The notes under the pieces are model-generated. The model had not been told where the DNA came from. It did not search any database and worked only from the letters and a program-made list of their open reading frames with translations. Both the position numbers and the translations under genes were made by a program. Below are positions 7,022-34,577 of a stretch of DNA of 64,000 bases, one piece after another. The DNA is from Escherichia coli (GTDB lineage Bacteria > Pseudomonadota > Gammaproteobacteria > Enterobacterales > Enterobacteriaceae): NCBI RefSeq assembly GCF_003334815.1, contig NZ_QOWO01000008.1, one strand, 5' to 3'. Each line of letters begins with the position of its first letter. Position 1 is the first letter of the stretch.

Positions 7022-7035
7022 CATACTCTCCTTAC

Positions 7036-11352: not shown

Positions 11353-11353
11353 G

Positions 11354-11440: not shown

Positions 11441-11702
11441 CGCGGCACTCCGACCATTTGTTATACAGGTGTTATTGTCTTTGCGCTTATAATATGACAA
11501 CCATCACAAAAATCAATCTTTATGTGATACAAATCACATAAATACCCCTTTAATGTTATAAAAATGATAATCAAAAAACAGCCCCCCTATTTCTGACACC
11601 TACAGATGGCAAGAAATAGCGCCTGCCAGGCGTCTTTTCCGGCCATTGTCGCAGCACTGTAACGCGTAAAATAGTGCTTTCTCTTACTCTTCTGGCTGGA
11701 CC

Positions 11703-12026: not shown

Positions 12027-12196
12027 ATATTTTAATCAGCGAGGGGATCTTCGCTGATTAAAGAAATAGCGGTAATGCGTTTTATTCCCATTCGTATTTT
12101 TAATAATTGAAGTTTATATTTTACCTTTTGCAAATAATAAAATAACAAATTATAGTGACGCCACAGCAACAAATATAACCTTTGTGGAGCACTATC

Positions 12197-12694
12197 ATGC
12201 TGAAACCAGAAATGATTGAAAAACTTAATGAGCAGATGAACCTGGAACTGTACTCTTCACTGCTTTATCAGCAAATGAGCGCCTGGTGCAGCTATCATAC
12301 CTTCGAAGGTGCTGCCGCGTTCCTGCGCCGTCACGCCCAGGAAGAGATGACGCATATGCAGCGTCTGTTTGATTACCTGACTGATACCGGCAATTTACCG
12401 CGTATTAATACCGTTGAATCTCCGTTTGCTGAATATTCCTCACTTGATGAGTTATTCCAGGAAACCTATAAACACGAACAATTAATCACCCAGAAAATTA
12501 ACGAACTGGCTCATGCTGCAATGACCAATCAGGACTACCCAACATTTAATTTCCTGCAATGGTATGTTTCTGAGCAGCATGAAGAAGAGAAACTGTTCAA
12601 ATCGATTATTGATAAATTAAGCCTGGCAGGCAAAAGCGGCGAAGGTCTGTATTTTATCGACAAAGAACTCTCTACCCTCGACACACAAAACTAA
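12197..12694 (+). CDS. ftnA: Ferritin FtnA
   Basis: Track ORF starts at 12182 (MWSTIM...); recalled FtnA (165 aa) begins [19 protein letters not shown] at ATG 12197. Confidence 0.95.
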
Positions 12695-12701
12695 TGCTCT
12701 C

Positions 12702-12730
12702 CGGCGGCAGGTTTACTGCCGCCGTTTCAA
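12702..12730 (+). terminator. Intrinsic terminator between convergent ftnA and yecH
   Basis: Hairpin CGGCGGCAG-GTTTA-CTGCCGCCG followed by TTTCAAAT. Confidence 0.6.
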
Positions 12731-12731
12731 A

Positions 12732-12971
12732 TCAGTGACGGCAAATCTTACTCTGATCGGTCGAAAAACCGTCTTTCGAAGGTATAAATTTGCCTTTTGC
12801 TGCCAGAAACGCTACCAGCTCTCCCGCTGTCATCCCTTCTGCCGAGCAGGTGTGAAAACGTGCCTGTTCACCAAAACGCGCTTTAATCGCAGCTTCCAGA
12901 CTGGCATGCGTATATTGCTCGCCTGATTCAATCATCATATTTAACACTTCATGACCGTGAATAGAGTCCAT
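12732..12971 (-). CDS. yecH: DUF2492 family protein YecH
   Basis: 79-aa ORF matching recalled YecH. Confidence 0.88.
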   Translation of the reverse strand: MDSIHGHEVLNMMIESGEQYTHASLEAAIKARFGEQARFHTCSAEGMTAGELVAFLAAKGKFIPSKDGFSTDQSKICRH

Positions 12972-13161
12972 CGTCCCTCCTCAAAAAAAGCCTAGCGTAG
13001 CGATTGCCGCTTATGAAGACTTTGCGCCAGCGCAGGACTGAATGCTTTTTATTGTACATTTATATTTACACCATATGTAACGTCGGTTTGACGAAGCAGC
13101 CGTTATGCCTTAACCTGCGCCGCAGATATCACTCATAAAGATCGTCAGGACAGAAGAAAGC

Positions 13162-14373
13162 GTGAAAAACAGAACCCTGGGAAGTGTTTTTATCGTGGCG
13201 GGAACCACAATTGGCGCAGGCATGCTGGCAATGCCGCTGGCTGCGGCCGGTGTTGGTTTTAGCGTTACGTTAATCTTGTTGATTGGGCTTTGGGCGTTGA
13301 TGTGCTACACGGCGCTATTACTGCTGGAGGTGTACCAGCATGTTCCGGCAGATACCGGTCTGGGCACGCTGGCAAAACGCTATCTGGGACGCTACGGTCA
13401 ATGGCTGACGGGCTTCAGTATGATGTTCTTAATGTATGCTCTGACTGCGGCATACATCAGCGGTGCCGGTGAATTGTTGGCCTCCAGCATCAGCGACTGG
13501 ACAGGTATTTCTATGTCGGCAACCGCTGGCGTGCTGTTGTTCACTTTTGTTGCCGGTGGCGTGGTTTGTGTCGGAACTTCACTGGTCGATTTATTTAACC
13601 GTTTTCTGTTCAGCGCCAAGATTATTTTTCTGGTGGTAATGCTGGTACTACTGCTGCCGCATATTCACAAAGTGAATCTTTTAACCCTGCCGTTGCAACA
13701 GGGGCTGGCTCTGTCTGCAATCCCGGTGATTTTTACGTCGTTTGGTTTTCACGGTAGCGTGCCGAGTATTGTCAGCTATATGGATGGCAACATTCGTAAG
13801 CTACGCTGGGTGTTTATAATCGGTAGTGCGATCCCCCTGGTGGCATATATTTTCTGGCAGGTGGCGACGCTTGGCAGCATTGATTCAACAACCTTTATGG
13901 GATTGCTGGCTAATCATGCTGGATTAAACGGGCTGTTACAGGCGTTACGCGAAATGGTGGCCTCTCCGCATGTTGAGCTGGCAGTGCATTTATTTGCTGA
14001 TTTAGCCCTCGCCACGTCATTTCTCGGCGTTGCGTTAGGCTTATTTGATTATCTGGCTGATTTATTTCAGCGTTCAAATACCGTTGGTGGACGGTTGCAA
14101 ACTGGTGCAATTACGTTTCTGCCGCCGTTGGCGTTTGCACTGTTTTATCCACGAGGATTTGTGATGGCGCTGGGTTACGCCGGTGTGGCGCTGGCGGTAC
14201 TGGCATTGATTATCCCTTCGCTGTTGACCTGGCAAAGCAGAAAGCACAATCCTCAGGCGGGTTACCGGGTCAAAGGTGGTCGTCCGGCGCTGGTGGTGGT
14301 GTTTCTCTGTGGTATTGCTGTGATTGGCGTGCAATTTTTGATTGCGGCAGGGTTGTTACCAGAAGTGGGGTGA
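13162..14373 (+). CDS. tyrP: Tyrosine-specific permease
   Basis: 403-aa polytopic ORF with GTG start; matches recalled TyrP. Confidence 0.95.
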
Positions 14374-14434
14374 TCAGATAGCCTCAAATTCCTTATTGGG
14401 TGCCAGAATTAACGCTGACACCCAATTTGGCCTC

Positions 14435-15100
14435 TTAATGCAGGCAGCACTGCTTAAATTTCTTACCACTACCGCACGGGCAAGGATCGTTACGCCCCGG
14501 TTTCTCTTCTGCTTTGATCGGTTGCTGAACAGCTTTTTCCTGCGGATGCGCCATCCAGTACGCATGTAGATCAAGCGCCGCCAGTCGAATGGCATCTACG
14601 CTCTCTTCAAACGCTTCTGGCGACATCTTTTCTACCCGCTCGAAGTTTTCCTCAGTACCGTGCAGCGCAATCGCCTCCAGCGCTGGTTTTAACGAATCGG
14701 GCAACGTTGACCAGTCAGAAAGTGCCACGCCCCGCATATAGCCAAAGCACCACTCCTCAACAATCGTCAGCTCGCTGCCATCAACTTCTCGCAAGCCGAA
14801 TAACGGCTCAAACTGCTCCGGGAATTCGTTCAGACGCTCTGCGGTATCGGCCATATGTTGAAAAGCCAGATTCATAAAGCGCGTCATCTCTTTCTCTGAC
14901 GCCCAGCGCGGCACATAGTCAGCCCCACCCCACACGGCAACCAGCCACTGTTCCGGTTCAATCTCTTGCGGAGAACTCAACACCGCCGTCAATAAACCGT
15001 CCAGCTCCGCCACATCAAGGATGGCGTGGTCAGTGTTGTATTTGGTCAGAATATCGTCCAGCCATTCCAACTCACTTTCGTTTAACGGTCCCGTTTTCAT
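14435..15100 (-). CDS. yecA: UPF0149/SEC-C motif protein YecA
   Basis: 221-aa ORF ending in the SecA-like metal-binding motif [13 protein letters not shown]; matches recalled YecA. Confidence 0.93.
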
Positions 15101-15226
15101 ACGCTTTTCCTTGTGGATCTCAACTCGCCAGCACCTATCTTACATGCCGGTCCGTATCAGAGATACTTTTTGAGTGGCTTTGCTGGTGATTAAAAATTAA
15201 GGAGGGTGTAACGACAAGTTGCAGGC

Positions 15227-15252
15227 ACAAAAAAACCACCCGAAGGTGGTTT
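15227..15252 (-). terminator. Intrinsic terminator of the glyW-cysT-leuZ tRNA operon
   Basis: Minus-strand hairpin AACCACC-TTCG-GGTGGTT followed by U7, 44 nt downstream of the leuZ 3' end. Confidence 0.75.
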
Positions 15253-15295
15253 CACGACACTGCTTATTGCTTTGATTTTATTCTTATCTTTCCCA

Positions 15296-15382
15296 TGGTA
15301 CCCGGAGCGGGACTTGAACCCGCACAGCGCGAACGCCGAGGGATTTTAAATCCCTTGTGTCTACCGATTCCACCATCCGGGC
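15296..15382 (-). tRNA. leuZ: tRNA-Leu (anticodon UAA)
   Basis: Reverse complement reads GCCCGGATGGTGGAATCGGTAGACACAAGGGATTTAAAATCCC...GGGTACCA, 87 nt with encoded CCA. Confidence 0.95.
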
Positions 15383-15394
15383 TCGGGAAGAAAG

Positions 15395-15468
15395 TGGAGG
15401 CGCGTTCCGGAGTCGAACCGGACTAGACGGATTTGCAATCCGCTACATAACCGCTTTGTTAACGCGCC
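15395..15468 (-). tRNA. cysT: tRNA-Cys (anticodon GCA)
   Basis: Reverse complement reads GGCGCGTTAACAAAGCGGTTATGTAGCGGATTGCAAATCCG...GCGCCTCCA, 74 nt. Confidence 0.95.
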
Positions 15469-15522
15469 AAATTCTTCAGGCCTTTCAGCCAGACATCCGC
15501 TTGACGCCGATGTCTTTTAAAC

Positions 15523-15598
<76 letters not shown>

Positions 15599-15749
15599 AT
15601 TCATCAAGCAATCAGTTAATCACTTGATTTTATTATCGTCTGGCAATCAGTGCCGCCGTTCGATGCGTTGCATTCTACTTACCTGGCGCGATGAGTCAAC
15701 GATATTTTTCACCACTTTTGATCGTTTGCTGAAAATTACGCCGAAACGA

Positions 15750-16298
15750 TCACTGATCAAGCAAATCTGCACGCGCAGCGCTCAAATATTGCAACATTGA
15801 CCACAGAGTCAGTACCGCAGCCACAAAGAAAAGTGCAATACCGGCGTACTCAACCCAAATGTTCGGACGCCACAGCAGCCATGCCAACGCCACCATCTGG
15901 GCAGTGGTTTTCACTTTCCCAATCCAGGAGACGGCCACGCTACTGCGTTTACCCAACTCCGCCATCCATTCGCGTAGCGCAGAAATAATAATTTCACGGG
16001 CGATCATCGTTGCCGCCGGTAATGTCACCCACCAGCTGTGATAATGCTCGGTTACCAGCACCATGGCGATAGCCACGAGAACTTTATCTGCCACAGGGTC
16101 AAGGAAAGCACCAAACCGGGTACTCTGGTTCCAGCGGCGTGCCAGAAAACCATCGAACCAGTCAGTCACCGCCGCGACGCAGAAAATGAGCGCGGCGGCA
16201 AACGGCGACCAGGTGACAGGCAGATAAAAGACCAATACAAAGAATGGGATAAGGATGACACGGAACAGTGTAAGCAACGTAGGGATATTAAATTGCAT
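15750..16298 (-). CDS. pgsA: CDP-diacylglycerol--glycerol-3-phosphate 3-phosphatidyltransferase
   Basis: 182-aa ORF matching recalled PgsA; CDP-alcohol phosphatidyltransferase motif region DWFDGFLAR. Confidence 0.95.
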
Positions 16299-16354
16299 AA
16301 TGACGGGTAACTATCTGTTGTCAGTAAGATTACCCCTATGTTGCTACAGAGACA

Positions 16355-18187
16355 TCAATGTTTCAACGACCAGAAGATCTTTTCTGCCAGACCTTGCGAA
16401 ATACCCGGCACTTTTGCAATTTCCTCGACGCTGGCGTTACGTAAACCTTGCAAACCGCCCATATATTTCAACAACATTTGCCGACGTTTTGGCCCGACGC
16501 CTTCAATGGTTTCCAGGGAACTGGTATTTTTGACCTTCGCCCGTTTTTTACGGTGCCCGCCAATCGCGTGATCATGTGATTCATCGCGAATATGCTGGAT
16601 AACATGCAGCGCGGGTGAATCTGGCGGCAAACTAAATCCCTCACCTTCCGGCTCAAAGAACAGCGTTTCCAGTCCAGCCTTACGATCTGCTCCTTTGGCA
16701 ACGCCAAGTAGCAGCGGATGATTTTTATCCCATGAGACATCCAGTTCGGCGAAGACATTTTTCGCCTGCGCAAGCTGGCCTTTGCCGCCGTCGATAAGGA
16801 TCACATCCGGGATCTTACTGTCGTCAATGGCTTTACCATAACGCCGACGCAGCACCTGATTCATCGCCGCATAATCATCGCCCGGCGTGATGCCTGTAAT
16901 GTTATAGCGCCGATACTCCGCACGCAGCGGGCCGTTAGCATCAAACACCACACAGGAAGCGACGGTTTGTTCGCCCATGGTATGGCTGATGTCAAAGCAC
17001 TCCATCCGCTTCACTTCCGGCAATTTCAACACGCTGGCAAGCGCGGTCAGTCGCTGGTGAACGGTAGATTGCTGCGAAAGTTTGCTGGTTAAGGCCGTCG
17101 CCGCATTGGTGCGCGCGAGTTTCAGATAACGCGCCCTATCGCCGCGAGGTTTGGTTTGAACATTAATCTTGCGTCCCGCCAGTTCTGAAAGGGAATCGGC
17201 GAGCAGCGTTTTATCGCTAAGATTAAAATCGAGCAGGATCTCACCCGGTAAGGTGCGCATCTGGCTGCCTTGTAAATAGAACTGGCCTACGAAGGTTTCT
17301 ACCACCTCGCTCAGTTCCGTACCGCCAGGCACTTTCGGGAAATAGCTGCGGCTGCCGAGCACTTTGCCCTGACGAATGAACAATACGTGGACACAAGCCA
17401 TGCCCGCATCGAACGCCACACCAATAACGTCGAGGTCGTCGCCGGTATTGGAAACGAATTGTTTTTCGGTGACGCGTCGCACCGCCTGAATTTGGTCGCG
17501 AATACGTGCAGCTTCTTCAAACTCCAGATTCTGGCTGGCAGTTTCCATACGACTAATGAGTTGCGTAAGCACCTGATCATCTTTGCCAGACAAAAACAGG
17601 CGCACATACTCGACCTGCTGAGCGTATTCTTCTTCACTCACCAGTCCTTCAACGCACGGTCCCAGACAGCGCCCTATCTGGTATTGCAGACACGGACGCG
17701 AGCGATTGCGATAAACACTATTTTCGCACTGGCGAATGGGGAAAATCTTTTGCAGTAGCGCCAGTGTTTCACGTACGGCATAGCCATTCGGGAACGGGCC
17801 GAAATATTCACCTTTGGCATGCTTCGCACCACGATGCATCGCCAGACGCGGGTGGGTATCACCACTCAGGAAGATAAAAGGATATGATTTATCATCGCGT
17901 AGCAAAACGTTGTAACGCGGCTGATAGAGTTTGATGTAGTTGTGTTCCAGCAACAGCGCTTCGGTTTCTGTGTGAGTAACCGTTACATCAATTTGCTGGA
18001 TCTGGGCGACCAGCGCTTCGGTTTTGCGCGAAGCGAGGTTGCTACGGAAATAGCTGGAAAGCCGTTTTTTCAGGTCTTTCGCTTTGCCGACATAGATAAC
18101 CGTACCACCAGCATCGTACATGCGATAAACGCCTGGCTGGCTGGTTACGGTTTTTAAAAACGCTTTTGCGTCAAACTGATCACTCAC
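16355..18187 (-). CDS. uvrC: Excinuclease ABC subunit C
   Basis: 610-aa ORF matching recalled UvrC; start overlaps uvrY stop by 4 nt. Confidence 0.96.
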
Positions 18188-18840
18188 TGACTTGATAATG
18201 TCTCCGCATTACACAGACCATGGCGAATTGCCAGGTGAGTCAGCTCAACATCGCCATGAATGTTTAGTTTACTGAACATACGATAGCGGTAGCTGTTCAC
18301 CGTTTTCGGACTGAGATTGAGCTGTTCTGAGATCTCATTGACCTTCTGGCCCTTGGTGATCATCAGCATAATCTGCAATTCACGTTCAGACAAACTGGCA
18401 AATGGGCTTTCTGTTTTTTCTGGTTCGATCTGGCTTAACGCCATTTGTTGAGCGATGTCAGAAGCAATGTAACGCTGCCCTGAATAGACAGAACGAATCG
18501 CACTCACGACTTCCTGCGGAGCCGCGCCTTTGCTGAGGTAGCCCGCAGCACCGGCCTGCATGACTTTCGCTGGTAAAGGGTTTTCTGTATGGACGGTAAG
18601 CATGATGATTTTGACATCAGCTGTGGAACGCGCGATTTTACGCGTCGCCTCAAGACCGCCAATGCCCGGCATACTCATGTCCATTAGCACCACGTCAACG
18701 GCATTTGTCCGGCACCACTTAACGGCGTCTTCACCGCACGATGCCTCACCGACGACTTTTATACCCTTTATATCTTCCAGAATGCGTCGTATCCCTGCGC
18801 GCACCAGTTCGTGGTCATCAACAAGTAGAACGTTGATCAA
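18184..18840 (-). CDS. uvrY: Response regulator UvrY (BarA partner, FixJ/LuxR family)
   Basis: 218-aa ORF with receiver domain and C-terminal HTH; matches recalled UvrY. Confidence 0.96.
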
Positions 18841-19298
18841 AGGAATATCTCCAGAAATAGGGATAACGCTACTGATAGTTAGTCATTCGTATATTAGCGG
18901 TTTTTATTGCAACTTTGAAACGTTAAAAATGGTGGGTATTCGATTTTTCTCTCGTTTTTGTCAATTCGATTGTCCACAGTTATGGTCACGCCCGTCACCA
19001 ACGGCTTACCGGATCGTTTCACAGTAAGCCCTGCGACGAAATGTGACAAAAATTACCTTTATTCAGCAAAAATGAAAATCAGCCCGCTGAATATGTAACA
19101 TTAATTAACCCGAACAATACGGGCAAAAAACATTCATGATAAAAATATTTATTGGTCATTATATTAACGCATTTAATAGCACCGTTGACGATACGCTCAA
19201 AAAACAACCACTGCTATTTTTAGCAAAGCTTATGGTATACTCCGCCGCCTTAACATTTTTCACCGCAAATTTTCATTGCAACATGACGAGGAAAATAA

Positions 19299-19590: not shown

Positions 19591-20313
19591 TCAAATTAAG
19601 CCAGTAGCGGCCGCGTAACAGGCAACCTGGGTCTTATTCGGTGCATTGATTTTTTTCTGCATGTTTTTCTGATGGAAATTGACCGTATTCTCAGAGATTG
19701 ACAAAATCATCGCTATCTCTGCTGATGTCTTCCCTTCCGCCGTCCATTTCAAAATTTCTTTTTCGCGCTTGCTGAAATTCATCTCTGGCGTCATCACTAT
19801 TTCATCATTTAAACGCATCAGAGCCATCAGACTTTCGCGCACCAGTAACTGCATTTTTAATTGCAGTTCATCACTAAGAATGGGTATTTCGCGCGCGCTG
19901 CTACGGGAAAAGGACAAAAAGCCCAGCGCCCGGTTTGGCAGCATTAAATACTGAGTGACACCGCGGCGTAAACCATGTGCGCGCGCGGCTTCCCATAACG
20001 GCTGTGCTTCGCTGAATAAGTCATCATTCCACATTAAATGGCCCTGACTAAAGTTTTCAGGGTTCAGCACCGGATCAATTGCGAGAAAGTTTTTTGCCTG
20101 ATAATAACTAACCCACGCCTCAGGGTAATTGGTGTAGAAAGCCACTTTAGGTCGCGTGAATGGTACCGGGTGGCGAACACATAACGAATAGTAATCGTAC
20201 TCTAGCTGCTGAGCCTGAAGCTCTATTTCATGGTAGACCTCTTCTGCGGCCTCCATCCTCTGAAAACGCAACAGCATCGTGCGACGCCAGCTGAAAAAAT
20301 CCGTATCCTGCAT
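19591..20313 (-). CDS. sdiA: LuxR-family orphan quorum-sensing regulator SdiA
   Basis: Track ORF starts at 20325 (MRFTMQDTDFF...); recalled SdiA (240 aa) begins MQDTDFFSWRRTMLLRFQ at ATG 20313. Confidence 0.94.
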   Translation of the reverse strand: MQDTDFFSWRRTMLLRFQRMEAAEEVYHEIELQAQQLEYDYYSLCVRHPVPFTRPKVAFYTNYPEAWVSYYQAKNFLAIDPVLNPENFSQGHLMWNDDLFSEAQPLWEAARAHGLRRGVTQYLMLPNRALGFLSFSRSSAREIPILSDELQLKMQLLVRESLMALMRLNDEIVMTPEMNFSKREKEILKWTAEGKTSAEIAMILSISENTVNFHQKNMQKKINAPNKTQVACYAAATGLI

Positions 20314-20542
20314 AGTAAACCGCAACGCCCCTGAGAGTGAGTATCATTTATAATGATAATTCAAACTATCACATAAATAAGATTTATATATAATTTATAT
20401 TATTCAGGCAATGAATTACTTTTGCAAGCCATCGCATTCTCTTATGTTATTAATGAGTTATGCTGATTTGTTAAGCTGTTTTATCACGCTTGAAATGGCG
20501 TCCCGCCCCGACAGGTGAATCGTCGGGGCTGATTTTTTCTTA

Positions 20543-21295
20543 TTATTGCAGCAGAAACTTCTCGAGGAACTGGCGGGTGCGAGGCTGCTGGGGATCGGCA
20601 AATAACGCTTTTGCTGCCCCCTGCTCGACTATCCGCCCCTGGTCCATAAAAATCGCCCGGTCCGCAACATCCCGGGCAAAGCTCATTTCGTGCGTCACAA
20701 TCACCATCGTGCGCTTTTCCTGCGCCAGCTGACGGATGGTGTTCAGGACTTCGCCCACCAGCTCTGGATCCAGCGCCGACGTTGGCTCGTCAAACAAAAT
20801 CACCTCAGGACGCATTGCCAGCGCACGTGCAATCGCAACACGTTGCTGTTGACCGCCAGACAAACGACGTGGATAGCTGGTTTCTTTACCGGCCAGCCCA
20901 ACTTTCGCCAACAGCTCGCGAGCGCGCGCCGTGGCCTCTTCTTTCGGTTCGCCTTTGACGATCACCGGCCCTTCAATAATGTTTTCCAGCACCGTACGAT
21001 GCGGAAACAAATTAAAGTTCTGGAAGACAAACCCGACGTGCTGACGCAACTGGCGAATCAGCGATTTTTGCTGACTTAATGAACGTGCAGTATCAATAGT
21101 GATATCGCCAACGGTGATAGTTCCCGCTTCCGGTTGTTCCAGCAGATTTATGCTGCGTAGCAACGTGGTTTTGCCGGAACCACTCGGACCGATAATTGCC
21201 ACCACTTCGCCAGGCTTTACCTCAAGGTCGATACCGTGCAGCACCGTCTGACCGTGAAATTTTTTCACCAGGTTCTTAACTTCAATGGCACTCAT
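20543..21295 (-). CDS. tcyN: Cystine ABC transporter ATP-binding protein
   Basis: 250-aa ORF with Walker A GPSGSGKTT and ABC signature LSGGQQQR; matches recalled YecC/TcyN. Confidence 0.94.
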   Translation of the reverse strand: MSAIEVKNLVKKFHGQTVLHGIDLEVKPGEVVAIIGPSGSGKTTLLRSINLLEQPEAGTITVGDITIDTARSLSQQKSLIRQLRQHVGFVFQNFNLFPHRTVLENIIEGPVIVKGEPKEEATARARELLAKVGLAGKETSYPRRLSGGQQQRVAIARALAMRPEVILFDEPTSALDPELVGEVLNTIRQLAQEKRTMVIVTHEMSFARDVADRAIFMDQGRIVEQGAAKALFADPQQPRTRQFLEKFLLQ

Positions 21296-21960
21296 TTTGG
21301 TTCTCTCTCCTGGCGATTAAGTTGATTCTCAAAATGGTTCTGCAACGTCGATAATACTGTCGCCATGATCCAGTAGATGAGCGAAGCCGCCAGGTACATG
21401 GTGAACACCTCCAGCGTGCGCGAGGTAATCAACTGCGCCTGACGGAACAGCTCCGGCACCTGAATTGTCGCGGCCAGCGACGTATCTTTTACCAGGCTGA
21501 TAAAGCTGTTCGACAGCGGCGGCAACGCCACCCGCGCCGCCTGTGGCAAAATCGCGCGACGCATAGTCTGCCATGGCGTCATACCAATACTGGCAGCTGC
21601 TTCCCACTGACCTTTATCAATAGAAGAAATGGCGGCGCGCAGCGTTTCGGCAGCATAGGCGGCAGTGTTGAGCGACAGACCAATCATTGCTGACGGAATG
21701 GGATCTAATTCGATACCAAACTGCGGCAGGCCGTAATAGATCATAAACAGTTGTGCGATGAGCGGTGTACCACGAAAAATAGAGATATAAAAACGCGCCA
21801 GCCAGCGCACGGGCCAGATTGGCGACAGGCGCATCAGCGCGAGAATAAACCCGAGCAGTAAGCCAAAAAACATGCCGCCGATACTGAGTTGCAGCGTATA
21901 CCCAGCCCCTTTCAGCAGGAACGGCAAGGAATCAATAACCAGTTGTATACTTTCTTGCAT
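21292..21960 (-). CDS. tcyL: Cystine ABC transporter permease
   Basis: 222-aa membrane ORF matching recalled YecS/TcyL; 4-nt overlap with tcyN. Confidence 0.93.
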   Translation of the reverse strand: MQESIQLVIDSLPFLLKGAGYTLQLSIGGMFFGLLLGFILALMRLSPIWPVRWLARFYISIFRGTPLIAQLFMIYYGLPQFGIELDPIPSAMIGLSLNTAAYAAETLRAAISSIDKGQWEAAASIGMTPWQTMRRAILPQAARVALPPLSNSFISLVKDTSLAATIQVPELFRQAQLITSRTLEVFTMYLAASLIYWIMATVLSTLQNHFENQLNRQEREPK

Positions 21961-21974
21961 GAGCGTTCCCGGAG

Positions 21975-23866
<1,892 letters not shown>

Positions 23867-23953
23867 ATTCACCCCGAATGTTGTTATGTCTGTTTGCAGT
23901 GTAGAGCCATTGTTTGTAAACACAAAAACAACTCCGCTACATCTTATTCTTAT

Positions 23954-24505
23954 TTAATATATATCAGAAGAAGGCAGGCTGGAGGATTTCTGCACAAGTC
24001 CGGTACAGGTTTGGCGCTGATAGTGTTGATACTTCCGTAACGCGATGCGGTAATTGTTGGTGCTGGTGGTGGGCAGCCACGGGGCGAGGATTTCATCAAG
24101 GAAACCGTCCTGCAGCTGTTCGAGGGAAATATTTTGCTCGTGTAGATGATTCCCCAAACGGCGCAAACGAACGACATATTCACGCACCGTACCTGGGCTC
24201 ATTTCAGTTTGCTCAAAAAGAAATTGCTTAAAGCCGATAATATCGAAAAAATCACTCTGCGTTTTGCAGTGTAAATCACCGCAAAATCGGCACAATGCCG
24301 CCCATGATTGTTGTTCCACTTGCCAGCCATTTTCATCAAGCAGCGTGTCCAGGCGGGAAATCTCGATTTTATTCACTATTTTGCCGTCGCGAACTAAGGT
24401 AATGCGATCGAGTAATTTACGGCAATGCGCACAATGGGTCTGGCTGTGTTTAAAGTCTTTAAGATAGCGGCTTAATGGCCGTCTTTTCAGGTGCTGCACC
24501 ATCAT
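23954..24505 (-). CDS. fliZ: Flagellar/curli regulatory protein FliZ
   Basis: Track ORF 195 aa; recalled FliZ (183 aa) begins MMVQHLKRRPLSRYLKDF at ATG 24505. Confidence 0.93.
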   Translation of the reverse strand: MMVQHLKRRPLSRYLKDFKHSQTHCAHCRKLLDRITLVRDGKIVNKIEISRLDTLLDENGWQVEQQSWAALCRFCGDLHCKTQSDFFDIIGFKQFLFEQTEMSPGTVREYVVRLRRLGNHLHEQNISLEQLQDGFLDEILAPWLPTTSTNNYRIALRKYQHYQRQTCTGLVQKSSSLPSSDIY

Positions 24506-24550
24506 TAAGAACTCCTGGTAGTCAAAGTTAAAGTGCGGCATTTACTGACG

Positions 24551-25270
24551 TTATAACTTACCCAGTTTAGTGCGTAACCGTTTAATGGCCTGGCTGTGTA
24601 ACTGACTGACCCGCGATTCCCCGACCTCCAGCACCGCGCCAATCTCTTTGAGATTCAGCTCTTCCTGGTAATAGAGGGTTAATACCAGTTTTTCGCGCTC
24701 CGGCAGCGTTTCGATAGCTTCCATCACCCGCTGGCGCAGATTACTGTCCAGCAGTTGTTGTAGCGGGTTTTCTCGCTGATGATCATCAGTAACCAGTTCG
24801 ATGCTATCGCCGTGCTCTTCGCGCCACTCATCGTAGGAGAAGAGCTGGCTGTTATTGGTGTCGAGCAACATTTGGCGATAATCGGCAATATCGATCCCTA
24901 AACGTTCCGCTACCTCAGTTTCCGTGGCGTTGCGGCCAAGTTCCTGCTCCAGTTGCCCTATTGCCTGTGCCACTTCACGCGCGTTGCGTCGCACGCTGCG
25001 CGGCACCCAGTCACGGCTGCGAAGTTCATCCAGCATAGCGCCACGGATACGCTGCACTGCGTAAGTTGTAAATGCCGTTCCTTGTAGGGCGTCATAGCGT
25101 TCGACGGCATTAAGTAACCCAATGCCGCCCGCCTGTAGCAGATCGTCAAGTTCCACGCTCGCGGGCAGTCGAACCTGCAGGCGCAATGCTTCGTGACGCA
25201 CCAGCGGGACATAACGCTGCCACAGCGAGTGTTTATCCATTACACCTTCAGCGGTATAGAGTGAATTCAC
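24551..25270 (-). CDS. fliA: Flagellar sigma factor sigma-28 (FliA)
   Basis: 239-aa ORF matching recalled FliA. Confidence 0.97.
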   Translation of the reverse strand: MNSLYTAEGVMDKHSLWQRYVPLVRHEALRLQVRLPASVELDDLLQAGGIGLLNAVERYDALQGTAFTTYAVQRIRGAMLDELRSRDWVPRSVRRNAREVAQAIGQLEQELGRNATETEVAERLGIDIADYRQMLLDTNNSQLFSYDEWREEHGDSIELVTDDHQRENPLQQLLDSNLRQRVMEAIETLPEREKLVLTLYYQEELNLKEIGAVLEVGESRVSQLHSQAIKRLRTKLGKL

Positions 25271-25391
25271 GATAAACAGCCCTGCGTTATATGAGTTATC
25301 GGCATGATTATCCGTTTCTGCAGGGTTTTTAATCGGACGATTAGTGGGTGAAATGAGGGGTTATTTGGGGGTTACCGGTAAATTGCGGACA

Positions 25392-25415
25392 GAAAAAACC
25401 CCGCCGGTGGCGGGG
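25392..25415 (-). terminator. Intrinsic terminator at the end of the fliC 3' UTR
   Basis: Minus-strand hairpin CCCCGCC-ACCG-GCGGGG followed by U6. Confidence 0.75.
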
Positions 25416-25447
25416 AAGCACGTTGCTGACAAATTACCATTCATGTT

Positions 25448-25546
<99 letters not shown>

Positions 25547-25589
25547 AATTTGGCGTTGCCGTCAGTCTCAGTTAATCAGGTTAGGACGA

Positions 25590-27302
25590 TTAACCCTGCA
25601 GCAGAGACAGAACCTGCTGCGGTACCTGGTTAGCTTTTGCCAGCACGGAGTTACCTGCCTGCTGAATAATCTGCGCTTTCGACATGTTGGACACTTCGGT
25701 CGCATAGTCGGCGTCCTGAATACGGGACTGCGCTTCGGACAGGTTGGTAGTGGTGTTGTTCAGGTTGGTGACTGCGGAATCCAGACGGTTCTGCACGGCA
25801 CCCAGGGAAGAACGGAATTTGTCTACGGATGCGATAGCATCGTCCAGCGCTTTCAGCGGATCCGTGGTCGCTTCAGATTTACCTGTAGCTTCAGTGGTCA
25901 GAGAGCCGTCAGCCGCTTTATACAGAGCCGCGCCGTCATCATCCAGAATATTGCCGTTAGCAAATTCGTGATAAGTTTCTGTGACAGTCTTGTTGGCCGC
26001 AGTCGTCAGTTCACCCTCAGCACCAATATTTACGGTCGCTCCACCTGTAGTAGCAGTTACTGCACCATCAGCGGCAACGTCATAAGACTGTGCGCCGTTA
26101 GCTACGGTATAAGCCTGACCGGTTAACGCAGTGTTCATATCTTCGGCGGATACCGTCGCGCCCTTAATATCCACATTGTTGCTAACCTGGGTGAAGTCAA
26201 CGGTCATGCCGCTGCCGAAGGTAATCTTCGCATCAACTGCATCATGACCATTCGCACCGTTGAAAATACCGTCCAACGTTGCCGCGGCTGGGCCGCCGGC
26301 CTGGTTTTTCGTCAGGTTACCGTCAGCACCAATGTATAAAGCATCGCCATTAGTATCCGTCAGGGTACCATCGCTGGCAATTTTAACTTCCTGAGCGCTA
26401 CCACCGATGGAGATCTGAGCCGTGTTATCGCCGTTTGCTGCATAGGCTTTCAGAACATCAGCAACTTTAGTTGAGCCCGCAGTACCATCACCATTAGTAA
26501 GTGCGGTTGCGTCAAATGAATAAGACTTGCTGGTTGCGTTGTAGGTATATGCAGTAGAAGCCGCTACGCCTAACCCATTGTTTGTGCCAGCATAACCGCT
26601 AATAGTGCTGCCGCCACTAACGCTAGCCAGCACATCGGTAGCTGTTGCTGCATTAAAGGTAGTAACAGTAGATTTAGTCCAGGTGCTATTGCCACTGACA
26701 ACTGCACTTTGGGAGAAGCCCGCAGCGGTCAGATCTGCTTCAGTGGCTTTTGCATTATCAACAGCGCCTTTACCGTTGACGTTGAAGCTGGTCAGCTTCA
26801 GTGTAGAAGAGTCGATTTTTTTCAGGTCAATCGTGATGGTTTCACCATCATTTGCGCCCACCTGAATTTTCATTGAACCGTCTTTGGACAACACATTCAC
26901 GCCATTGAACTGGGTCTGACCAGATACGCGGTCAATTTCATCAAGACGAGATTTGATTTCGTCCTGGATGGAGTCCAGGTCAGAATCGGAGTTAGTACCG
27001 GTAGTGGCCTGAACCGTCAGTTCACGGATACGCTGTAAGTTGTTGTTGATTTCGGACAGCGCGCCTTCGGTGGTCTGCGCAACGGAAATACCGTCGTTGG
27101 CGTTACGTGCAGCCTGAGTCAGGCCTTTAATGTTAGAAGTAAAACGGTTAGCAATCGCCTGACCCGCGGCGTCATCCTTCGCGCTGTTAATACGCAAGCC
27201 AGAAGACAGACGCTCGATAGAACTCGACAGCGCAGACTGGTTCTTGTTGATATTATTTTGAGTGATCAGCGAGAGGCTGTTGGTATTAATGACTTGTGCC
27301 AT
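25590..27302 (-). CDS. fliC: Flagellin (H-antigen); 570 aa with conserved D0/D1 termini and a central variable domain unlike the K-12 allele
   Basis: N-terminus MAQVINTNSLSLITQNNINKNQSALSSSIERLSSGLRINSAKDDAAGQAIANRF and C-terminus ...SKAQIIQQAGNSVLAKANQVPQQVLSLLQG are canonical; the central ~300 aa is Thr/Ala/Gly/Asp-rich. Confidence 0.96.
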   Translation of the reverse strand: MAQVINTNSLSLITQNNINKNQSALSSSIERLSSGLRINSAKDDAAGQAIANRFTSNIKGLTQAARNANDGISVAQTTEGALSEINNNLQRIRELTVQATTGTNSDSDLDSIQDEIKSRLDEIDRVSGQTQFNGVNVLSKDGSMKIQVGANDGETITIDLKKIDSSTLKLTSFNVNGKGAVDNAKATEADLTAAGFSQSAVVSGNSTWTKSTVTTFNAATATDVLASVSGGSTISGYAGTNNGLGVAASTAYTYNATSKSYSFDATALTNGDGTAGSTKVADVLKAYAANGDNTAQISIGGSAQEVKIASDGTLTDTNGDALYIGADGNLTKNQAGGPAAATLDGIFNGANGHDAVDAKITFGSGMTVDFTQVSNNVDIKGATVSAEDMNTALTGQAYTVANGAQSYDVAADGAVTATTGGATVNIGAEGELTTAANKTVTETYHEFANGNILDDDGAALYKAADGSLTTEATGKSEATTDPLKALDDAIASVDKFRSSLGAVQNRLDSAVTNLNNTTTNLSEAQSRIQDADYATEVSNMSKAQIIQQAGNSVLAKANQVPQQVLSLLQG

Positions 27303-27368
27303 GATTCGTTATCCTATATTGCAAGTCGTTGATTACGTATTGGGTTTCCACCCGTCGGCTCAATCGCC

Positions 27369-27395
27369 GTCAACCCTGTTATCGTCTGTCGTAAA
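27369..27395 (-). promoter_or_regulatory. Sigma-28 (class 3) promoter of fliC
   Basis: Minus strand reads TAAAGGTT-N11-GACGATAA (consensus TAAAGTTT-N11-GCCGATAA) upstream of the fliC start. Confidence 0.75.
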
Positions 27396-27497
27396 ACAAC
27401 CTTTAGAATTTTTTTCACAAACAGCCATTTTTTGTTAGTCGCCGAAATACTCTTTTCTCTGCCCCTTATTCCCGCTATTAAAAAAAACAATTAAACG

Positions 27498-27524
27498 TAA
27501 ACTTTGCGCAATTCAGGCCGATAA
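27498..27524 (+). promoter_or_regulatory. Sigma-28 (class 3) promoter of fliDST
   Basis: TAAACTTT-N11-GCCGATAA on the + strand, about 45 bp upstream of the fliD ATG. Confidence 0.75.
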
Positions 27525-27567
27525 CCCCGGTATTCGTTTTACGTGTCGAAAGATAAAAGGAAATCGC

Positions 27568-28974
27568 ATGGCAAGTATTTCATCGCTGGGAGTCGGGTCA
27601 GGCCTGGATTTAAGTTCAATCCTTGATAGCCTCACCGCCGCGCAAAAAGCGACGCTAACCCCTATTTCAAATCAGCAATCGTCGTTTACCGCTAAACTTA
27701 GCGCCTACGGTACGCTGAAAAGCGCGTTGACGACTTTCCAGACCGCCAATACTGCATTGTCTAAAGCCGATCTTTTTTCCGCCACCAGCACTACCAGCAG
27801 CACCACCGCGTTCAGTGCCACCACCGCGGGTAACGCCATCGCCGGGAAATACACCATCAGCGTCACCCATCTGGCGCAGGCGCAAACCCTGACCACGCGC
27901 ACCACCAGAGATGATACGAAAACGGCGATCGCCACCAGCGACAGTAAACTCACCATTCAACAAGGCGGCGACAAAGATCCGATTACCATTGATATCAGCG
28001 CGGCTAACTCGTCGTTAAGCGGGATCCGTGATGCCATCAACAACGCAAAAGCGGGCGTAAGTGCGAGCATCATTAACGTGGGTAACGGTGAATATCGTCT
28101 GTCAGTCACATCAAATGACACCGGCCTTGACAATGCGATGACACTCTCGGTCAGCGGTGATGATGCGCTACAAAGTTTTATGGGCTATGACGCCAGTGCC
28201 AGCAGCAACGGCATGGAAGTCTCGGTCGCCGCCCAGAATGCGCAGCTGACGGTCAACAACGTCGCCATTGAGAACAGCAGCAACACCATCAGCGACGCGC
28301 TGGAAAACATCACCCTGAACCTGAACGATGTCACCACGGGCAACCAGACGCTGACCATCACTCAGGACACCTCCAAAGCGCAAACGGCGATTAAAGACTG
28401 GGTGAATGCCTATAACTCGCTAATAGATACCTTCAGCAGCCTGACCAAATACACCGCCGTAGATGCGGGAGCTGATAGCCAAAGCTCTAGCAATGGCGCA
28501 CTGCTCGGCGACTCCACGCTGCGGACGATTCAGACGCAGTTGAAGTCGATGCTGAGTAATACCGTCAGTTCTTCCAGCTATAAAACGTTGGCGCAGATTG
28601 GTATCACGACCGATCCCAGCGATGGCAAACTGGAACTGGATGCCGACAAACTCACCGCTGCACTGAAAAAAGATGCCAGCGGCGTAGGTGCATTGATTGT
28701 TGGCGATGGTAAAAAAACCGGCATCACAACCACCATCGGCAGCAACCTGACCAGTTGGCTTTCGACAACGGGCATTATTAAAGCCGCTACCGATGGCGTT
28801 AGTAAGACTCTGAATAAATTAACTAAAGACTACAACGCCGCCAGCGATCGCATTGATGCGCAGGTCGCGCGCTACAAAGAACAATTTACCCAACTGGACG
28901 TTTTAATGACCTCGTTAAACAGCACCAGCAGCTACTTAACGCAGCAGTTCGAAAACAACAGTAATTCCAAGTAA
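27568..28974 (+). CDS. fliD: Flagellar filament capping protein FliD
   Basis: 468-aa ORF matching recalled FliD. Confidence 0.96.
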   Translation: MASISSLGVGSGLDLSSILDSLTAAQKATLTPISNQQSSFTAKLSAYGTLKSALTTFQTANTALSKADLFSATSTTSSTTAFSATTAGNAIAGKYTISVTHLAQAQTLTTRTTRDDTKTAIATSDSKLTIQQGGDKDPITIDISAANSSLSGIRDAINNAKAGVSASIINVGNGEYRLSVTSNDTGLDNAMTLSVSGDDALQSFMGYDASASSNGMEVSVAAQNAQLTVNNVAIENSSNTISDALENITLNLNDVTTGNQTLTITQDTSKAQTAIKDWVNAYNSLIDTFSSLTKYTAVDAGADSQSSSNGALLGDSTLRTIQTQLKSMLSNTVSSSSYKTLAQIGITTDPSDGKLELDADKLTAALKKDASGVGALIVGDGKKTGITTTIGSNLTSWLSTTGIIKAATDGVSKTLNKLTKDYNAASDRIDAQVARYKEQFTQLDVLMTSLNSTSSYLTQQFENNSNSK

Positions 28975-28998
28975 TCAATATTCATCGGGAGACAGGTC

Positions 28999-29409
28999 AT
29001 GTACGCGGCAAAAGGCACCCAGGCCTATGCACAAATTGGCGTCGAAAGCGCCGTAATGAGCGCCAGCCAGCAGCAGCTGGTCACCATGCTATTTGATGGA
29101 GTGCTGAGCGCACTGGTTAGAGCGCGCCTGTTTATGCAGGACAACAATCAGCAAGGCAAAGGCGTCTCTTTGTCAAAAGCGATCAACATCATTGAGAACG
29201 GACTGCGGGTGAGTCTTGATGAAGATAGCAAAGACGAATTAACCCAAAACTTGATTGCTCTTTATAGCTATATGGTCAGGCGTTTGCTGCAAGCCAATTT
29301 ACGCAACGATGTCTCCGCAGTCGAAGAAGTGGAAGCATTAATGCGCAATATTGCCGATGCCTGGAAAGAGTCGTTACTCTCCCCTTCTTTGATTCAGGAC
29401 CCAGTCTGA
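28999..29409 (+). CDS. fliS: Flagellin-specific export chaperone FliS
   Basis: 136-aa ORF matching recalled FliS. Confidence 0.95.
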
Positions 29410-29774
29410 TGAACCATGCACCGCATTTGTATTTCGCCTGGCAACAACTCGTCGAAAAAAGCCAGCTCATGTTACGCCTGGCAACGGAAGAACAATGGGA
29501 CGAACTCATCGCCAGCGAAATGGCGTATGTGAATGCGGTGCAGGAGATAGCACACCTGACTGAAGAGGTTGCCCCGTCCACCACGATGCAGGAGCAGCTC
29601 CGCCCGATGCTGCGCCTGATTCTCGACAACGAAAGCAAGGTAAAGCAGTTATTACAGATTCGTATGGATGAACTGGCGAAACTGGTCGGTCAGTCATCGG
29701 TGCAAAAATCGGTGTTAAGTGCCTATGGCGATCAGGGCGGCTTTGTGCTGGCTCCGCAAGATAACTTCTCGTGA
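29409..29774 (+). CDS. fliT: FliD chaperone / anti-FlhDC factor FliT
   Basis: 121-aa ORF matching recalled FliT; overlaps the fliS stop. Confidence 0.95.
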
Positions 29775-29851
29775 ATCTTAACGAGCTAATGGTTCGCGAA
29801 TAATCCGATTACGGCTACGCTTCTAATGTTCCCCTTGAATGGAGTCGAAGA

Positions 29852-31339
29852 ATGCGTAATCCCACGCTGTTACAATGTTTTCACTGGTATTACCCGGAAG
29901 GCGGTAAGCTCTGGCCTGAACTGGCCGAGCGCGCCGACGGTTTTAATGATATTGGTATCAATATGGTCTGGTTGCCGCCCGCCTATAAAGGCGCATCGGG
30001 CGGGTATTCGGTCGGCTACGACTCCTATGATTTATTTGATTTAGGCGAGTTTGATCAGAAAGGCAGCATCCCTACTAAATATGGCGATAAAGTACAATTG
30101 CTGGCCGCCATTGACGCCCTGAAACGTAATGACATTGCGGTGCTGTTGGACGTGGTAGTCAACCACAAAATGGGCGCGGATGAAAAAGAAGCTATTCGCG
30201 TGCAGCGTGTAAATGCTGACGACCGTACGCAAATTGATGAAGAAATCATTGAGTGCGAAGGCTGGACGCGTTACACCTTCCCCGCCCGTGCCGGGCAATA
30301 CTCACAGTTTATCTGGGATTTCAAATGTTTTAGCGGTATCGACCATATCGAAAACCCTGATGAAGATGGCATATTTAAAATTGTTAACGACTACACCGGC
30401 GAAGGCTGGAACGATCAGGTTGATGATGAATTAGGTAATTTCGATTATCTGATGGGCGAGAATATCGATTTTCGCAATCATGCCGTGACGGAAGAGATTA
30501 AATACTGGGCGCGCTGGGTGATGGAACAAACGCAATGCGACGGTTTTCGTCTTGATGCGGTCAAACATATACCGGCATGGTTTTATAAAGAGTGGATCGA
30601 ACACGTACAAGAAGTTGCACCAAAGCCGCTGTTTATTGTGGCGGAGTACTGGTCGCATGAAGTCGATAAACTGCAAACGTATATTGATCAGGTGGAAGGC
30701 AAAACCATGCTGTTCGATGCGCCGCTGCAGATGAAATTCCATGAAGCATCGCGCATGGGGCGCGACTACGACATGACGCAGATTTTCACGGGTACATTAG
30801 TGGAAGCCGATCCTTTCCACGCCGTGACGCTCGTTGCCAATCACGACACCCAACCGTTGCAAGCCCTCGAAGCGCCGGTCGAACCGTGGTTTAAACCGCT
30901 GGCGTATGCCTTAATTTTGTTGCGGGAAAATGGCGTTCCTTCGGTATTCTATCCGGACCTCTACGGTGCGCATTACGAAGATGTCGGCGGTGACGGGCAA
31001 ACCTATCCGATAGATATGCCAATAATCGAACAGCTTGATGAGTTAATTCTCGCCCGTCAGCGTTTCGCCCACGGTGTACAGACATTATTTTTCGACCATC
31101 CGAACTGCATTGCCTTTAGCCGCAGTGGCACTGACGAATATCCCGGCTGCGTGGTGGTCATGTCGAACGGGGATGATGGCGAAAAAACCATTAATCTGGG
31201 AGAGAATTACGGCAATAAAACCTGGCGTGATTTTCTGGGGAACCGGCAAGAGAGCGTAGTAACCGACGAAAACGGTGAAGCGACCTTCTTTTGCAACGGC
31301 GGCAGCGTCAGCGTGTGGGTTATCGAAGAGGTGATTTAA
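29852..31339 (+). CDS. amyA: Cytoplasmic alpha-amylase (GH13)
   Basis: 495-aa ORF without signal peptide; matches recalled AmyA. Confidence 0.95.
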
Positions 31340-31345
31340 ATTCAT

Positions 31346-31364
31346 CCCCGGCGGCAAGCCGGGG
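31346..31364. terminator. Terminator-like GC hairpin between convergent amyA and yedD
   Basis: CCCCGGC-GGCAA-GCCGGGG stem-loop between the two stop codons; flanking U-tract is weak. Confidence 0.45.
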
Positions 31365-31372
31365 AGATTTCA

Positions 31373-31786
31373 TTACGGCAGTGGCGTCGGTAACGGCGCT
31401 TTATCCAGCGCGGCGGCACACTCTGCCGTCGGGCGATCCACACGCTCCATCGTCATACCATCGTACTCAATGGTGTTACCGTCACGCTCAACCTCGTATA
31501 GCTCACGTTTTACGGTAACGTTAGTGAGATCATCAGACATCAATGTCAACTTACCCGGCACGGCAATCACCCGCTGCCACTGACGGCAATCAAGAGTATC
31601 GCCCTCTTTAGTGACAATCAGGCTGCCTATCGCTTCCGGGCTGACCAGCGCACGTTGCGGCCCTTTGGTCTGCCAGTAGCCCGCCAGCCAGTCCGGCGCG
31701 GGGGTTTTCACGACATTGTTATAGTTTTCGACTTCGGCACAGCCCGCCAGCAACATGAGCGCGCCTGCAATTGCGAGTTTTTTCAT
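31373..31786 (-). CDS. yedD: Lipoprotein YedD
   Basis: 137/138-aa ORF with lipobox LAGC; matches recalled YedD. Confidence 0.9.
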   Translation of the reverse strand: MKKLAIAGALMLLAGCAEVENYNNVVKTPAPDWLAGYWQTKGPQRALVSPEAIGSLIVTKEGDTLDCRQWQRVIAVPGKLTLMSDDLTNVTVKRELYEVERDGNTIEYDGMTMERVDRPTAECAAALDKAPLPTPLP

Positions 31787-31972
31787 CATTCGTCCTGCAT
31801 GAGAAGAAAAGAAGATTGTGGCATTAAAGCCCTGATGTCGCCAGCCTTTACAGGTTCAGAGAGAAATTTGATCTAACTATTATTTTTGTGAATTATTACC
31901 CCGAAAATAAATTTGCATGATGTATGATTCGCGACTCTTGTTTCAAACCTTCTGAGTTCAGAGGCTACATTC

Positions 31973-33178
31973 ATGTCATGGCAGCAATTCAAACACGCCT
32001 GGTTGATTAAATTCTGGGCACCCATCCCTGCGGTCATCGCGGCGGGTATTCTCTCCACTTACTATTTTGGCATTACTGGCACCTTTTGGGCTGTCACGGG
32101 TGAATTTACCCGTTGGGGCGGCCAGCTCCTGCAGCTGTTTGGCGTCCATGCTGAAGAGTGGGGTTATTTTAAAATTATCCATCTGGAAGGATCGCCATTA
32201 ACCCGCATCGACGGGATGATGATCCTCGGCATGTTTGGCGGCTGCTTTGCCGCAGCGCTGTGGGCCAACAATGTCAAACTGCGCATGCCACGCAGCCGTA
32301 TCCGCATTATGCAGGCCATTATTGGCGGTATTATCGCTGGTTTTGGCGCGCGTCTGGCAATGGGCTGTAACCTGGCGGCGTTCTTTACCGGTATTCCTCA
32401 GTTCTCGCTGCATGCCTGGTTCTTTGCCATCGCCACTGCCATTGGTTCATGGTTTGGCGCACGCTTTACCCTGCTGCCCATCTTCCGTATTCCCGTGAAA
32501 ATGCAGAAAGTTTCTGCCGCCTCACCGCTGACGCAAAAACCGGATCAGGCGCGGCGTCGTTTTCGTCTCGGGATGCTGGTCTTTTTCGGCATGCTGGGCT
32601 GGGCGCTGCTCACGGCGATGAACCAACCCAAACTGGGGCTGGCAATGCTGTTTGGCGTCGGCTTTGGTTTACTGATTGAACGTGCGCAAATCTGCTTTAC
32701 TTCGGCGTTCCGCGATATGTGGATCACCGGACGTACCCACATGGCGAAAGCAATCATTATTGGTATGGCGGTGAGTGCCATCGGGATCTTCAGTTACGTA
32801 CAGTTAGGTGTTGAACCCAAAATCATGTGGGCGGGACCAAACGCGGTAATTGGTGGTTTACTGTTTGGTTTTGGCATCGTGCTGGCAGGCGGCTGCGAAA
32901 CCGGTTGGATGTACCGCGCGGTAGAAGGTCAGGTGCACTACTGGTGGGTCGGTCTGGGCAATGTGATCGGCTCAACCATTCTGGCGTATTACTGGGATGA
33001 TTTCGCTCCGGCGCTGGCCACCGACTGGGACAAAATCAACCTGCTGAAAACCTTTGGCCCGATGGGTGGCCTGCTGGTGACATATTTGCTGTTGTTTACT
33101 GCGCTGATGTTGATTATCGGCTGGGAAAAACGCTTCTTCCGCCGTGCGGCACCGCAGACTGCTAAGGAGATCGCATGA
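31973..33178 (+). CDS. yedE: YedE family inner-membrane transporter (YeeE/YedE; sulfur/selenium-compound transport)
   Basis: 401-aa polytopic ORF matching recalled YedE. Confidence 0.92.
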   Translation: MSWQQFKHAWLIKFWAPIPAVIAAGILSTYYFGITGTFWAVTGEFTRWGGQLLQLFGVHAEEWGYFKIIHLEGSPLTRIDGMMILGMFGGCFAAALWANNVKLRMPRSRIRIMQAIIGGIIAGFGARLAMGCNLAAFFTGIPQFSLHAWFFAIATAIGSWFGARFTLLPIFRIPVKMQKVSAASPLTQKPDQARRRFRLGMLVFFGMLGWALLTAMNQPKLGLAMLFGVGFGLLIERAQICFTSAFRDMWITGRTHMAKAIIIGMAVSAIGIFSYVQLGVEPKIMWAGPNAVIGGLLFGFGIVLAGGCETGWMYRAVEGQVHYWWVGLGNVIGSTILAYYWDDFAPALATDWDKINLLKTFGPMGGLLVTYLLLFTALMLIIGWEKRFFRRAAPQTAKEIA

Positions 33179-33408
33179 AAAATATCATTCCTGATTACCG
33201 TCTTGATATGGTGGGTGAACCCTGCCCTTATCCGGCAGTCGCAACCCTTGAGGCGATGCCGCAGTTAAAAAAAGGTGAGATCCTGGAAGTGGTGAGCGAC
33301 TGTCCGCAGTCGATCAATAATATTCCACTGGATGCTCGTAATCACGGCTATACGGTGCTGGATATTCAGCAAGACGGGCCGACCATTCGTTATTTAATTC
33401 AGAAGTAA
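33175..33408 (+). CDS. yedF: TusA-like sulfurtransferase-fold protein YedF
   Basis: 77-aa ORF with TusA-type CPxP motif (EPCPYP); 4-nt overlap with yedE. Confidence 0.92.
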   Translation: MKNIIPDYRLDMVGEPCPYPAVATLEAMPQLKKGEILEVVSDCPQSINNIPLDARNHGYTVLDIQQDGPTIRYLIQK

Positions 33409-34185: not shown

Positions 34186-34577
34186 TAAGCCAGGAGACTA
34201 TTGATCAATAATACTGCGTCATAAGAAATCTCTATTAGACAAAGTAGACGCTCCTTCCACATGCGCCACAAGAAACCTCTATTCCAGTGACACAATTACG
34301 CCTGATTATTTCCCTAGCCCGGAATATGAATAAAAACATCAACAAAGATTAAATTATTCAAACGTTACTGTTGCGTCTGCGGTCGTAACAACATCCGACG
34401 TGGTGATGTGTATCAAATGAGGCCTCTGATGATCAGAGGGTTTATCGCGTATACGGATCGTGGATGGCAGAAAACTTTCAGAATCAGGTTTCCATTTTAA
34501 ACCAGAAATTGAGTGAGTTTGCCCCATCCATGCCCCACGCGGTGAGATCGGATGTAATTAACAACAGGTTACAAAAC

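Follow-up and report, generated by a model that had tools for sequence, protein, structure and literature searches.

The gene at positions 25590..27302 (minus strand) of the window, by which we mean the whole 64-kb stretch of Escherichia coli DNA analyzed here, is an intact predicted fliC gene of the bacterial flagellin (FliC/FljB) family, and its sequence assigns it to the catalogued H32 allele. The best overall explanation, in which we have very high confidence, is that this fliC-H32 gene encodes a flagellin with outer domains of the H6/H7 family, that its transcription is driven by FliA, and that it lies within a large recombined block on a K-12-like chromosomal frame. According to this explanation, the conserved D0/D1 helices of FliC would build the filament core, and the ∼317-residue centre would fold into outer domains at the filament surface that bear the serotype-specific epitopes. 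Transcription would start from a FliA (σ28) class 3 promoter and end at an intrinsic terminator ∼175 nt past the stop codon. The H-type difference from K-12 would have arisen when a large segment of the chromosome, fliC included, was exchanged by homologous recombination.

The open reading frame list gave fliC as 570 codons plus a stop codon, with a product that begins MAQVINTNSL and ends QVLSLLQG. The gene is flanked on one side by fliA (24551..25270, minus strand) and on the other by the divergent fliD-fliS-fliT genes (27568..29774, plus strand), followed by amyA. Both the open reading frame map and a collinear alignment with K-12 showed that the order fliZ-fliA-fliC-fliD-fliS-fliT corresponds to the canonical enterobacterial position of fliC, and the entire window is collinear with positions 1975744-2042127 of K-12 MG1655, from motB/motA to zinT. 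Pfam searches located Flagellin_N (PF00669) in residues 5-140 (E = 1.4e-46), the enterobacterial “FliC” middle domain PF12445 in residues 347-473, and Flagellin_C (PF00700) in residues 483-568 (E = 5e-32). Together with the alignment to K-12 fliC, the two terminal matches mark out a 5′ conserved part comprising the D0/D1 N-terminal helices (26821..27302, minus strand; approximately codons 1-160) and a 3′ conserved part comprising the D1/D0 C-terminal helices (25590..25868, minus strand; approximately codons 479-570 plus the stop codon). Between them lies the central hypervariable region (25869..26820, minus strand; approximately codons 161-478), which is predicted to form the surface-exposed outer domains that set the H antigen.

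We compared this protein with FliC of K-12 MG1655 (H48; PDB 8CXM represents the K-12 core). The two share the locus, the promoter architecture, and the conserved D0/D1 regions, but the K-12 protein has 498 residues and is 72 residues shorter than the 570-residue FliC of the window. BLASTP aligned residues 1-195 at 86% identity and residues 452-570 at 80% identity, the proteins being identical from approximately residue 479, and it gave no alignment between residues 195 and 452. At the DNA level, the blastn alignment to K-12 stopped at 25868 and resumed at 26821, the window having 952 bp in place of 736 bp in K-12; neither blastn nor BLASTP detected similarity to K-12 over 25869-26820 (approximately residues 161-478). 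Relative to K-12, dS and dN were 0.31 and 0.027 in the 5′ conserved end of fliC and 0.19 and 0 in the 3′ conserved end.

The original prediction, made from the letters of the window, had described canonical N- and C-terminal D0/D1 regions around a central domain (approximately residues 180-480) wholly unlike that of K-12, a length of 570 residues against about 498, and an H antigen different from that of K-12. Pfam and the BLASTP comparison with K-12 confirmed the canonical ends; the variable block was found to span approximately residues 161-478, with nothing aligning there; and both lengths proved to be exact. The different antigen type can now be named as the catalogued H32, the protein being identical to FliC of the O70:H32 strain 1303. 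It had been allowed that the centre might match the K-12 allele after all once the two were aligned; the alignment was run, and the centre gave no match.

To place the allele, we relied on comparisons with complete genomes, six of which carry a fliC 100% identical to that of the window. Strain 1303, whose serotype is given as O70:H32 in its genome announcement (PMC4384141), encodes an identical 570-residue protein (WP_001507509.1) at the same locus and with the same flanking genes, the DNA being 99.8% identical over the gene and 100% identical in the centre. The differences between the two genes are three synonymous changes in the 3′ conserved end (25656, 25665, and 25668), with no non-synonymous ones. 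A record entitled “E. coli O10:H32 strain NMBU-W12E19” also matches the 24-kb neighbourhood of fliC at 99.8% identity, and the label H32 as used here is the one that the depositors gave to these two strains. The exact protein corresponds to UniProt Q9AL29 and is present on at least 1000 contigs. When the central 952 bp were searched in 5426 complete E. coli genomes, 67 genomes matched at ≥99% identity, 155 at ∼93%, and 75 at 60-80%, and none fell between 95% and 99%. These central identity classes (≥99% versus ∼93%), together with the 21 residues by which the protein differs from the H30 flagellin, identify the allele as H32 rather than H30. That the H32 allele resides at a hypervariable, recombining locus is already known; both the hypervariability of fliC and its recombinational exchange are well established (Hu and Reeves 2020, PMC7018530).

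H30 and H32 form one of four related pairs of H antigens (Hu and Reeves 2020, PMC7018530). The fliC-H30 gene of ST361 (O9:H30; WP_000079738.1) matches fliC-H32 in length (1713 bp, 570 residues) and in domain layout, and the proteins align without gaps at 96% identity. Of the 570 residues, 21 differ, nearly all of them lying between positions 199 and 479; the genes differ at 103 nucleotides, with the centres 93% identical in DNA. Strains named ST361, which belong to a lineage reported to be O9:H30, are found in the class of 155 genomes at ∼93%. Between the central regions of H32 and H30, dS was 0.21 and dN 0.031 by the Nei-Gojobori method; the resulting dN/dS of 0.14, coming from one pair of alleles, gives no gene-wide signal of positive selection, and two alleles are too few for site-level tests. 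This comparison shows an old split maintained mainly under purifying selection, and it speaks neither for nor against positive selection acting on a small number of epitope sites.

Three other E. coli fliC alleles, encoding 561, 559, and 557 residues, are 75-80% identical to H32 overall, and their centres align with it throughout; the H30/H32 centre is thus part of a wider family of alleles. The centre of a 546-residue E. coli flagellin shares 87% identity with that of H32, which makes this protein an intermediate variant, neither H32 (≥99%) nor the H30 sequence that we examined. Outside E. coli, the closest genus-named match to the central domain was in Atlantibacter hermannii (46%), two unnamed matches reached 51-60%, and matches in Yersinia, Pantoea, Ramlibacter, Variovorax, and Citrobacter had identities of ∼34-41%. 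With 46% as the best genus-named match, this search revealed no recent interspecies donor of the central domain.

We next turn to the family to which the outer domains belong. Among solved structures, the closest was the flagellin of EPEC O127:H6 (PDB 7SN7/7SQJ, identified as such in PMC8931119), which gave a single end-to-end phmmer alignment (E = 6e-171). Identity to this flagellin was 96% in residues 1-175, ∼32% in residues 176-478, and 95% in residues 479-570; it has 548 residues as compared with 570 here, and the centre of the alignment contains 34 gapped columns. The Achromobacter flagellin 7SQD also gave a single end-to-end alignment (E = 3e-121), whereas the K-12 and Salmonella flagellins matched the FliC of the window at the termini only in the same search. 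The flagellins of EHEC H7, EPEC H6, and Achromobacter possess three outer domains, D2-D4, that dimerize or tetramerize into an “outer domain sheath” (Kreutzberger et al. 2022, PMC8931119); the outer domains of K-12 are of the Salmonella type and are unrelated to them (PMC8931119).

In an AlphaFold2 model, built on an alignment of seven sequences, most 10-residue blocks between residues 181 and 470 had pLDDT values of 81-94, and confidence in D0 was low; it is a model of the monomer that does not reproduce the inter-domain geometry. When the model was compared with the PDB by Foldseek, the filaments of H7, Azotobacter, H6, and Achromobacter (E values of 1e-38 to 1e-28) ranked above Salmonella-type flagellins (∼1e-21), and the top five matches were 7SN4 (two chains), 9N59, 7SN7, and 7SQD. 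The global TM score was only ∼0.35, which we attribute to the use of a monomer model without inter-domain geometry and to the low-confidence D0 helices, and because of this low confidence and the poor global geometry of the model, the Foldseek ranking was used qualitatively only. By sequence, the outer domains of H32 are homologous to those of the H6/H7/Achromobacter family and not of the K-12/Salmonella type, and the predicted fold ranks with this family as well. By analogy with these relatives, the H32 flagellin may form a sheath as well.

The surroundings of the gene were examined for signals of expression. A search of the window with the σ28 consensus TAAAGTTT-N11-GCCGATAA, allowing two mismatches, returned four matches as compared with 0.68 expected by chance. 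One of them, TAAAGGTT-N11-GACGATAA at 27405..27379 (minus strand), lies upstream of fliC and resembles a class 3 promoter, and from the known fliC promoter of K-12 and the sequence match we infer that it is probably a FliA-dependent promoter. A second match, TAAACTTT-N11-GCCGATAA at 27498..27524 (plus strand), faces fliD. On the other side of the gene, the 3′ UTR (25390..25589, minus strand) contains REP-like palindromes; its ends are approximate and were taken from a terminator scan and the sequence, with the K-12 alignment block 2752-25868 running through it. It ends in a putative intrinsic terminator at 25415..25399 (minus strand), where CCCCGCCACCGGCGGGG precedes a run of T.

By position, this 3′ UTR matches the FliX sRNA region of K-12, in which fliX is annotated directly downstream of fliC. 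An Rfam scan of the 3′ UTR gave nothing specific beyond a borderline match on the opposite strand, to the ES036 (CssrF) sRNA at 25484-25525 (plus strand; 38.1 bits versus a gathering score of 37.6). This match lies within the REP-like palindromes on the strand opposite to fliC and is probably one to a repeat element, of no real meaning. The proteins of the flagellar system itself were checked against K-12, and all 22 that were compared (21 flagellar or motility proteins and SdiA) aligned essentially from end to end and contained no stop codons. This check took in motA, flhDC, fliA, fliZ, fliD-T, the fliE-R genes except fliL, and sdiA. As far as the window can be read, nothing in it argues against the expression of fliC.

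A scan for mismatches with K-12 revealed a mosaic. Positions 1-19032 of the window contained five differences (0.03%); from 19033 onward there were abruptly 19-23 differences per kb, and divergence then continued at 1-2% through fliC to the end of the window. This places the left recombination breakpoint at 19032..19033, in the uvrY-yecU intergenic region. Values of dS relative to K-12 were 0 in motA and flhC, 0.02-0.09 in sdiA, fliZ, fliA, fliD, fliS, fliT, amyA, fliF, and fliI, and highest (0.19-0.31) in the conserved ends of fliC. Beyond the window, our results are those for a proxy genome, FDN-24, which is 100% identical to the window over positions 12000-36000 and has a net 62 bp of indels in 36000-64000. 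In FDN-24, the 38 kb alignable to the left of the window differ from K-12 by 0-0.1%. To the right, the sequence remains 1-2% divergent over at least 134 kb that could be aligned, as far as K-12 position 2,160,000, with peaks of 5-8% beside the O-antigen cluster. The divergent stretch of FDN-24 spans the his operon, an O26-family O-antigen cluster (wzx/wzy), and the colanic-acid (wca) genes, and reaches mdtC. No right-hand breakpoint was found within the 134 kb aligned past the window in this genome, in which divergence never falls back to zero.

Taken together, and with the extent read from FDN-24, a K-12-like clonal frame appears to be interrupted by a divergent block, at least 165 kb long, in which the H locus and the O locus both lie. 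Since the frame is shared up to the uvrY-yecU spacer and fliC lies in the divergent sequence beyond it, homologous recombination of a large segment would account for the H-type difference from K-12, and either lineage may have been the recipient. In comparison with the H32 strain 1303, the window was identical across the fliC centre, the 5′ end of fliC, and fliD-fliT, and the rest of 19591-33302 was nearly identical. Differences from strain 1303 were gathered in two patches, one with 16 differences at 25075-25668 (the fliA-fliC spacer and the 3′ conserved end of fliC) and one with 33 differences at 30046-32461 (amyA-yedD), which suggest further small exchanges around the H32 allele.

Other features of the window were recorded during these comparisons. 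The window lacks the IS1H element that K-12 MG1655 carries upstream of its flhDC genes; at ∼2752-2759 the alignment with K-12 jumps from 1978502 to 1979271, the IS1H site, and the region upstream of flhDC is uninterrupted. Also missing are yedL and the yedN pseudogene of K-12 (∼1.9 kb, K-12 positions 2010549-2012430), with a 67-bp remnant at 34244-34311, between yedK and fliE. The FliD cap protein (27568-28974, plus strand) is 100% identical to that of K-12, all 26 nucleotide differences in its gene being synonymous (dS 0.08, dN 0). The yedS porin gene (55899-57116, plus strand), a pseudogene in the K-12 annotation, is an intact open reading frame of 405 residues from the first ATG, and the kilobase that contains it is the most divergent aligned stretch of the window (14.5% from K-12). 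Rfam matches to DsrA (47105-47191, minus strand), RseX (55527-55616, plus strand), and three tRNAs at the positions of leuZ-cysT-glyW in K-12 (15299-15598, minus strand) were found at the expected syntenic places.

Several readings other than a recombined, FliA-driven fliC-H32 were weighed. The closest relative of H32 is H30, and an equal length of 1713 bp and 570 residues, a protein identity of 96%, and the relationship of the two antigens reported by Hu and Reeves could all lead to one being taken for the other. The centre, however, is 93% identical to the ST361 (O9:H30) cluster and 100% identical to the strains labelled H32, with no genome at 95-99%, and the protein differs from the ST361 allele at 21 amino acids and from that of strain 1303 at none; that the allele is in fact H30 is therefore extremely unlikely. 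An intact fliC might also not be the determinant of the expressed H antigen, either because the strain possesses a second flagellin locus of the flkA, fllA, or flmA type together with a repressor of fliC or because it is non-motile. Such loci occur in some E. coli (Hu and Reeves 2020, PMC7018530), and our view of second flagellin loci extends over 64 kb of the genome. Against this reading, the fliC open reading frame, its putative σ28 promoter, fliA, flhDC, fliD-T, and the fliE-R genes that were checked are all intact in the window; H32 is a standard H type in the literature, and strain 1303, with the same fliC, is reported as H32. We consider such a silent or superseded fliC very unlikely, and we favor an H32 flagellin that would be expressed, assembled into filaments, and exposed at their surface as the H antigen.

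The centres of flagellins are classic immune targets, and on this ground the difference from K-12 could be ascribed to divergence in situ under immune selection instead of recombinational replacement. Several results speak against this reading: the centre has no similarity to K-12 in DNA or protein and differs by 72 residues in length, in strain 1303 the same allele has flanks that locally carry a different haplotype, and the dN/dS of 0.14 relative to H30 gives no overall signal of positive selection. The abrupt step from 0.03% to ∼2% at 19033 effectively refutes divergence in situ, the probability of which we regard as negligible. In favoring recombinational replacement, we retain part of what had been predicted. 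An allelic replacement at fliC under immune selection had been proposed, to be sought in the synonymous divergence of the flanks, and the flanks did yield a genuine recombination mosaic with a sharp breakpoint at 19032/19033; the divergent block, however, is far larger than a fliC-sized cassette and runs past the end of the window. The appeal to immune selection found no demonstration in the sole close pair of alleles, H32 and H30, given the low dN/dS of their centres.

These results type the strain from which the window derives as flagellar H32 and place its H and O loci, as far as FDN-24 represents it, within a single large recombined block whose background is K-12-like. They describe a textbook case of serotype reshuffling in E. 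coli, of limited practical value and raising no open question. A mildly forward-looking point is the apparent membership of H30 and H32 in the sheath-forming family of flagellins. We know of no structural study of H32 or H30 filaments, and to our knowledge the effects of sheath-forming flagellins on motility have been studied for H6 and H7 only. With somewhat less than even confidence, we propose that H32 and H30 filaments may carry a sheath of the H6/H7 type with a dimer or tetramer lattice of its own, which would alter their waveform and tumbling in viscous media, and, separately, that the H32 allele and the O-antigen cluster may have moved together in one replacement of more than 165 kb within a frame of the ST10-like type that is otherwise identical to K-12.
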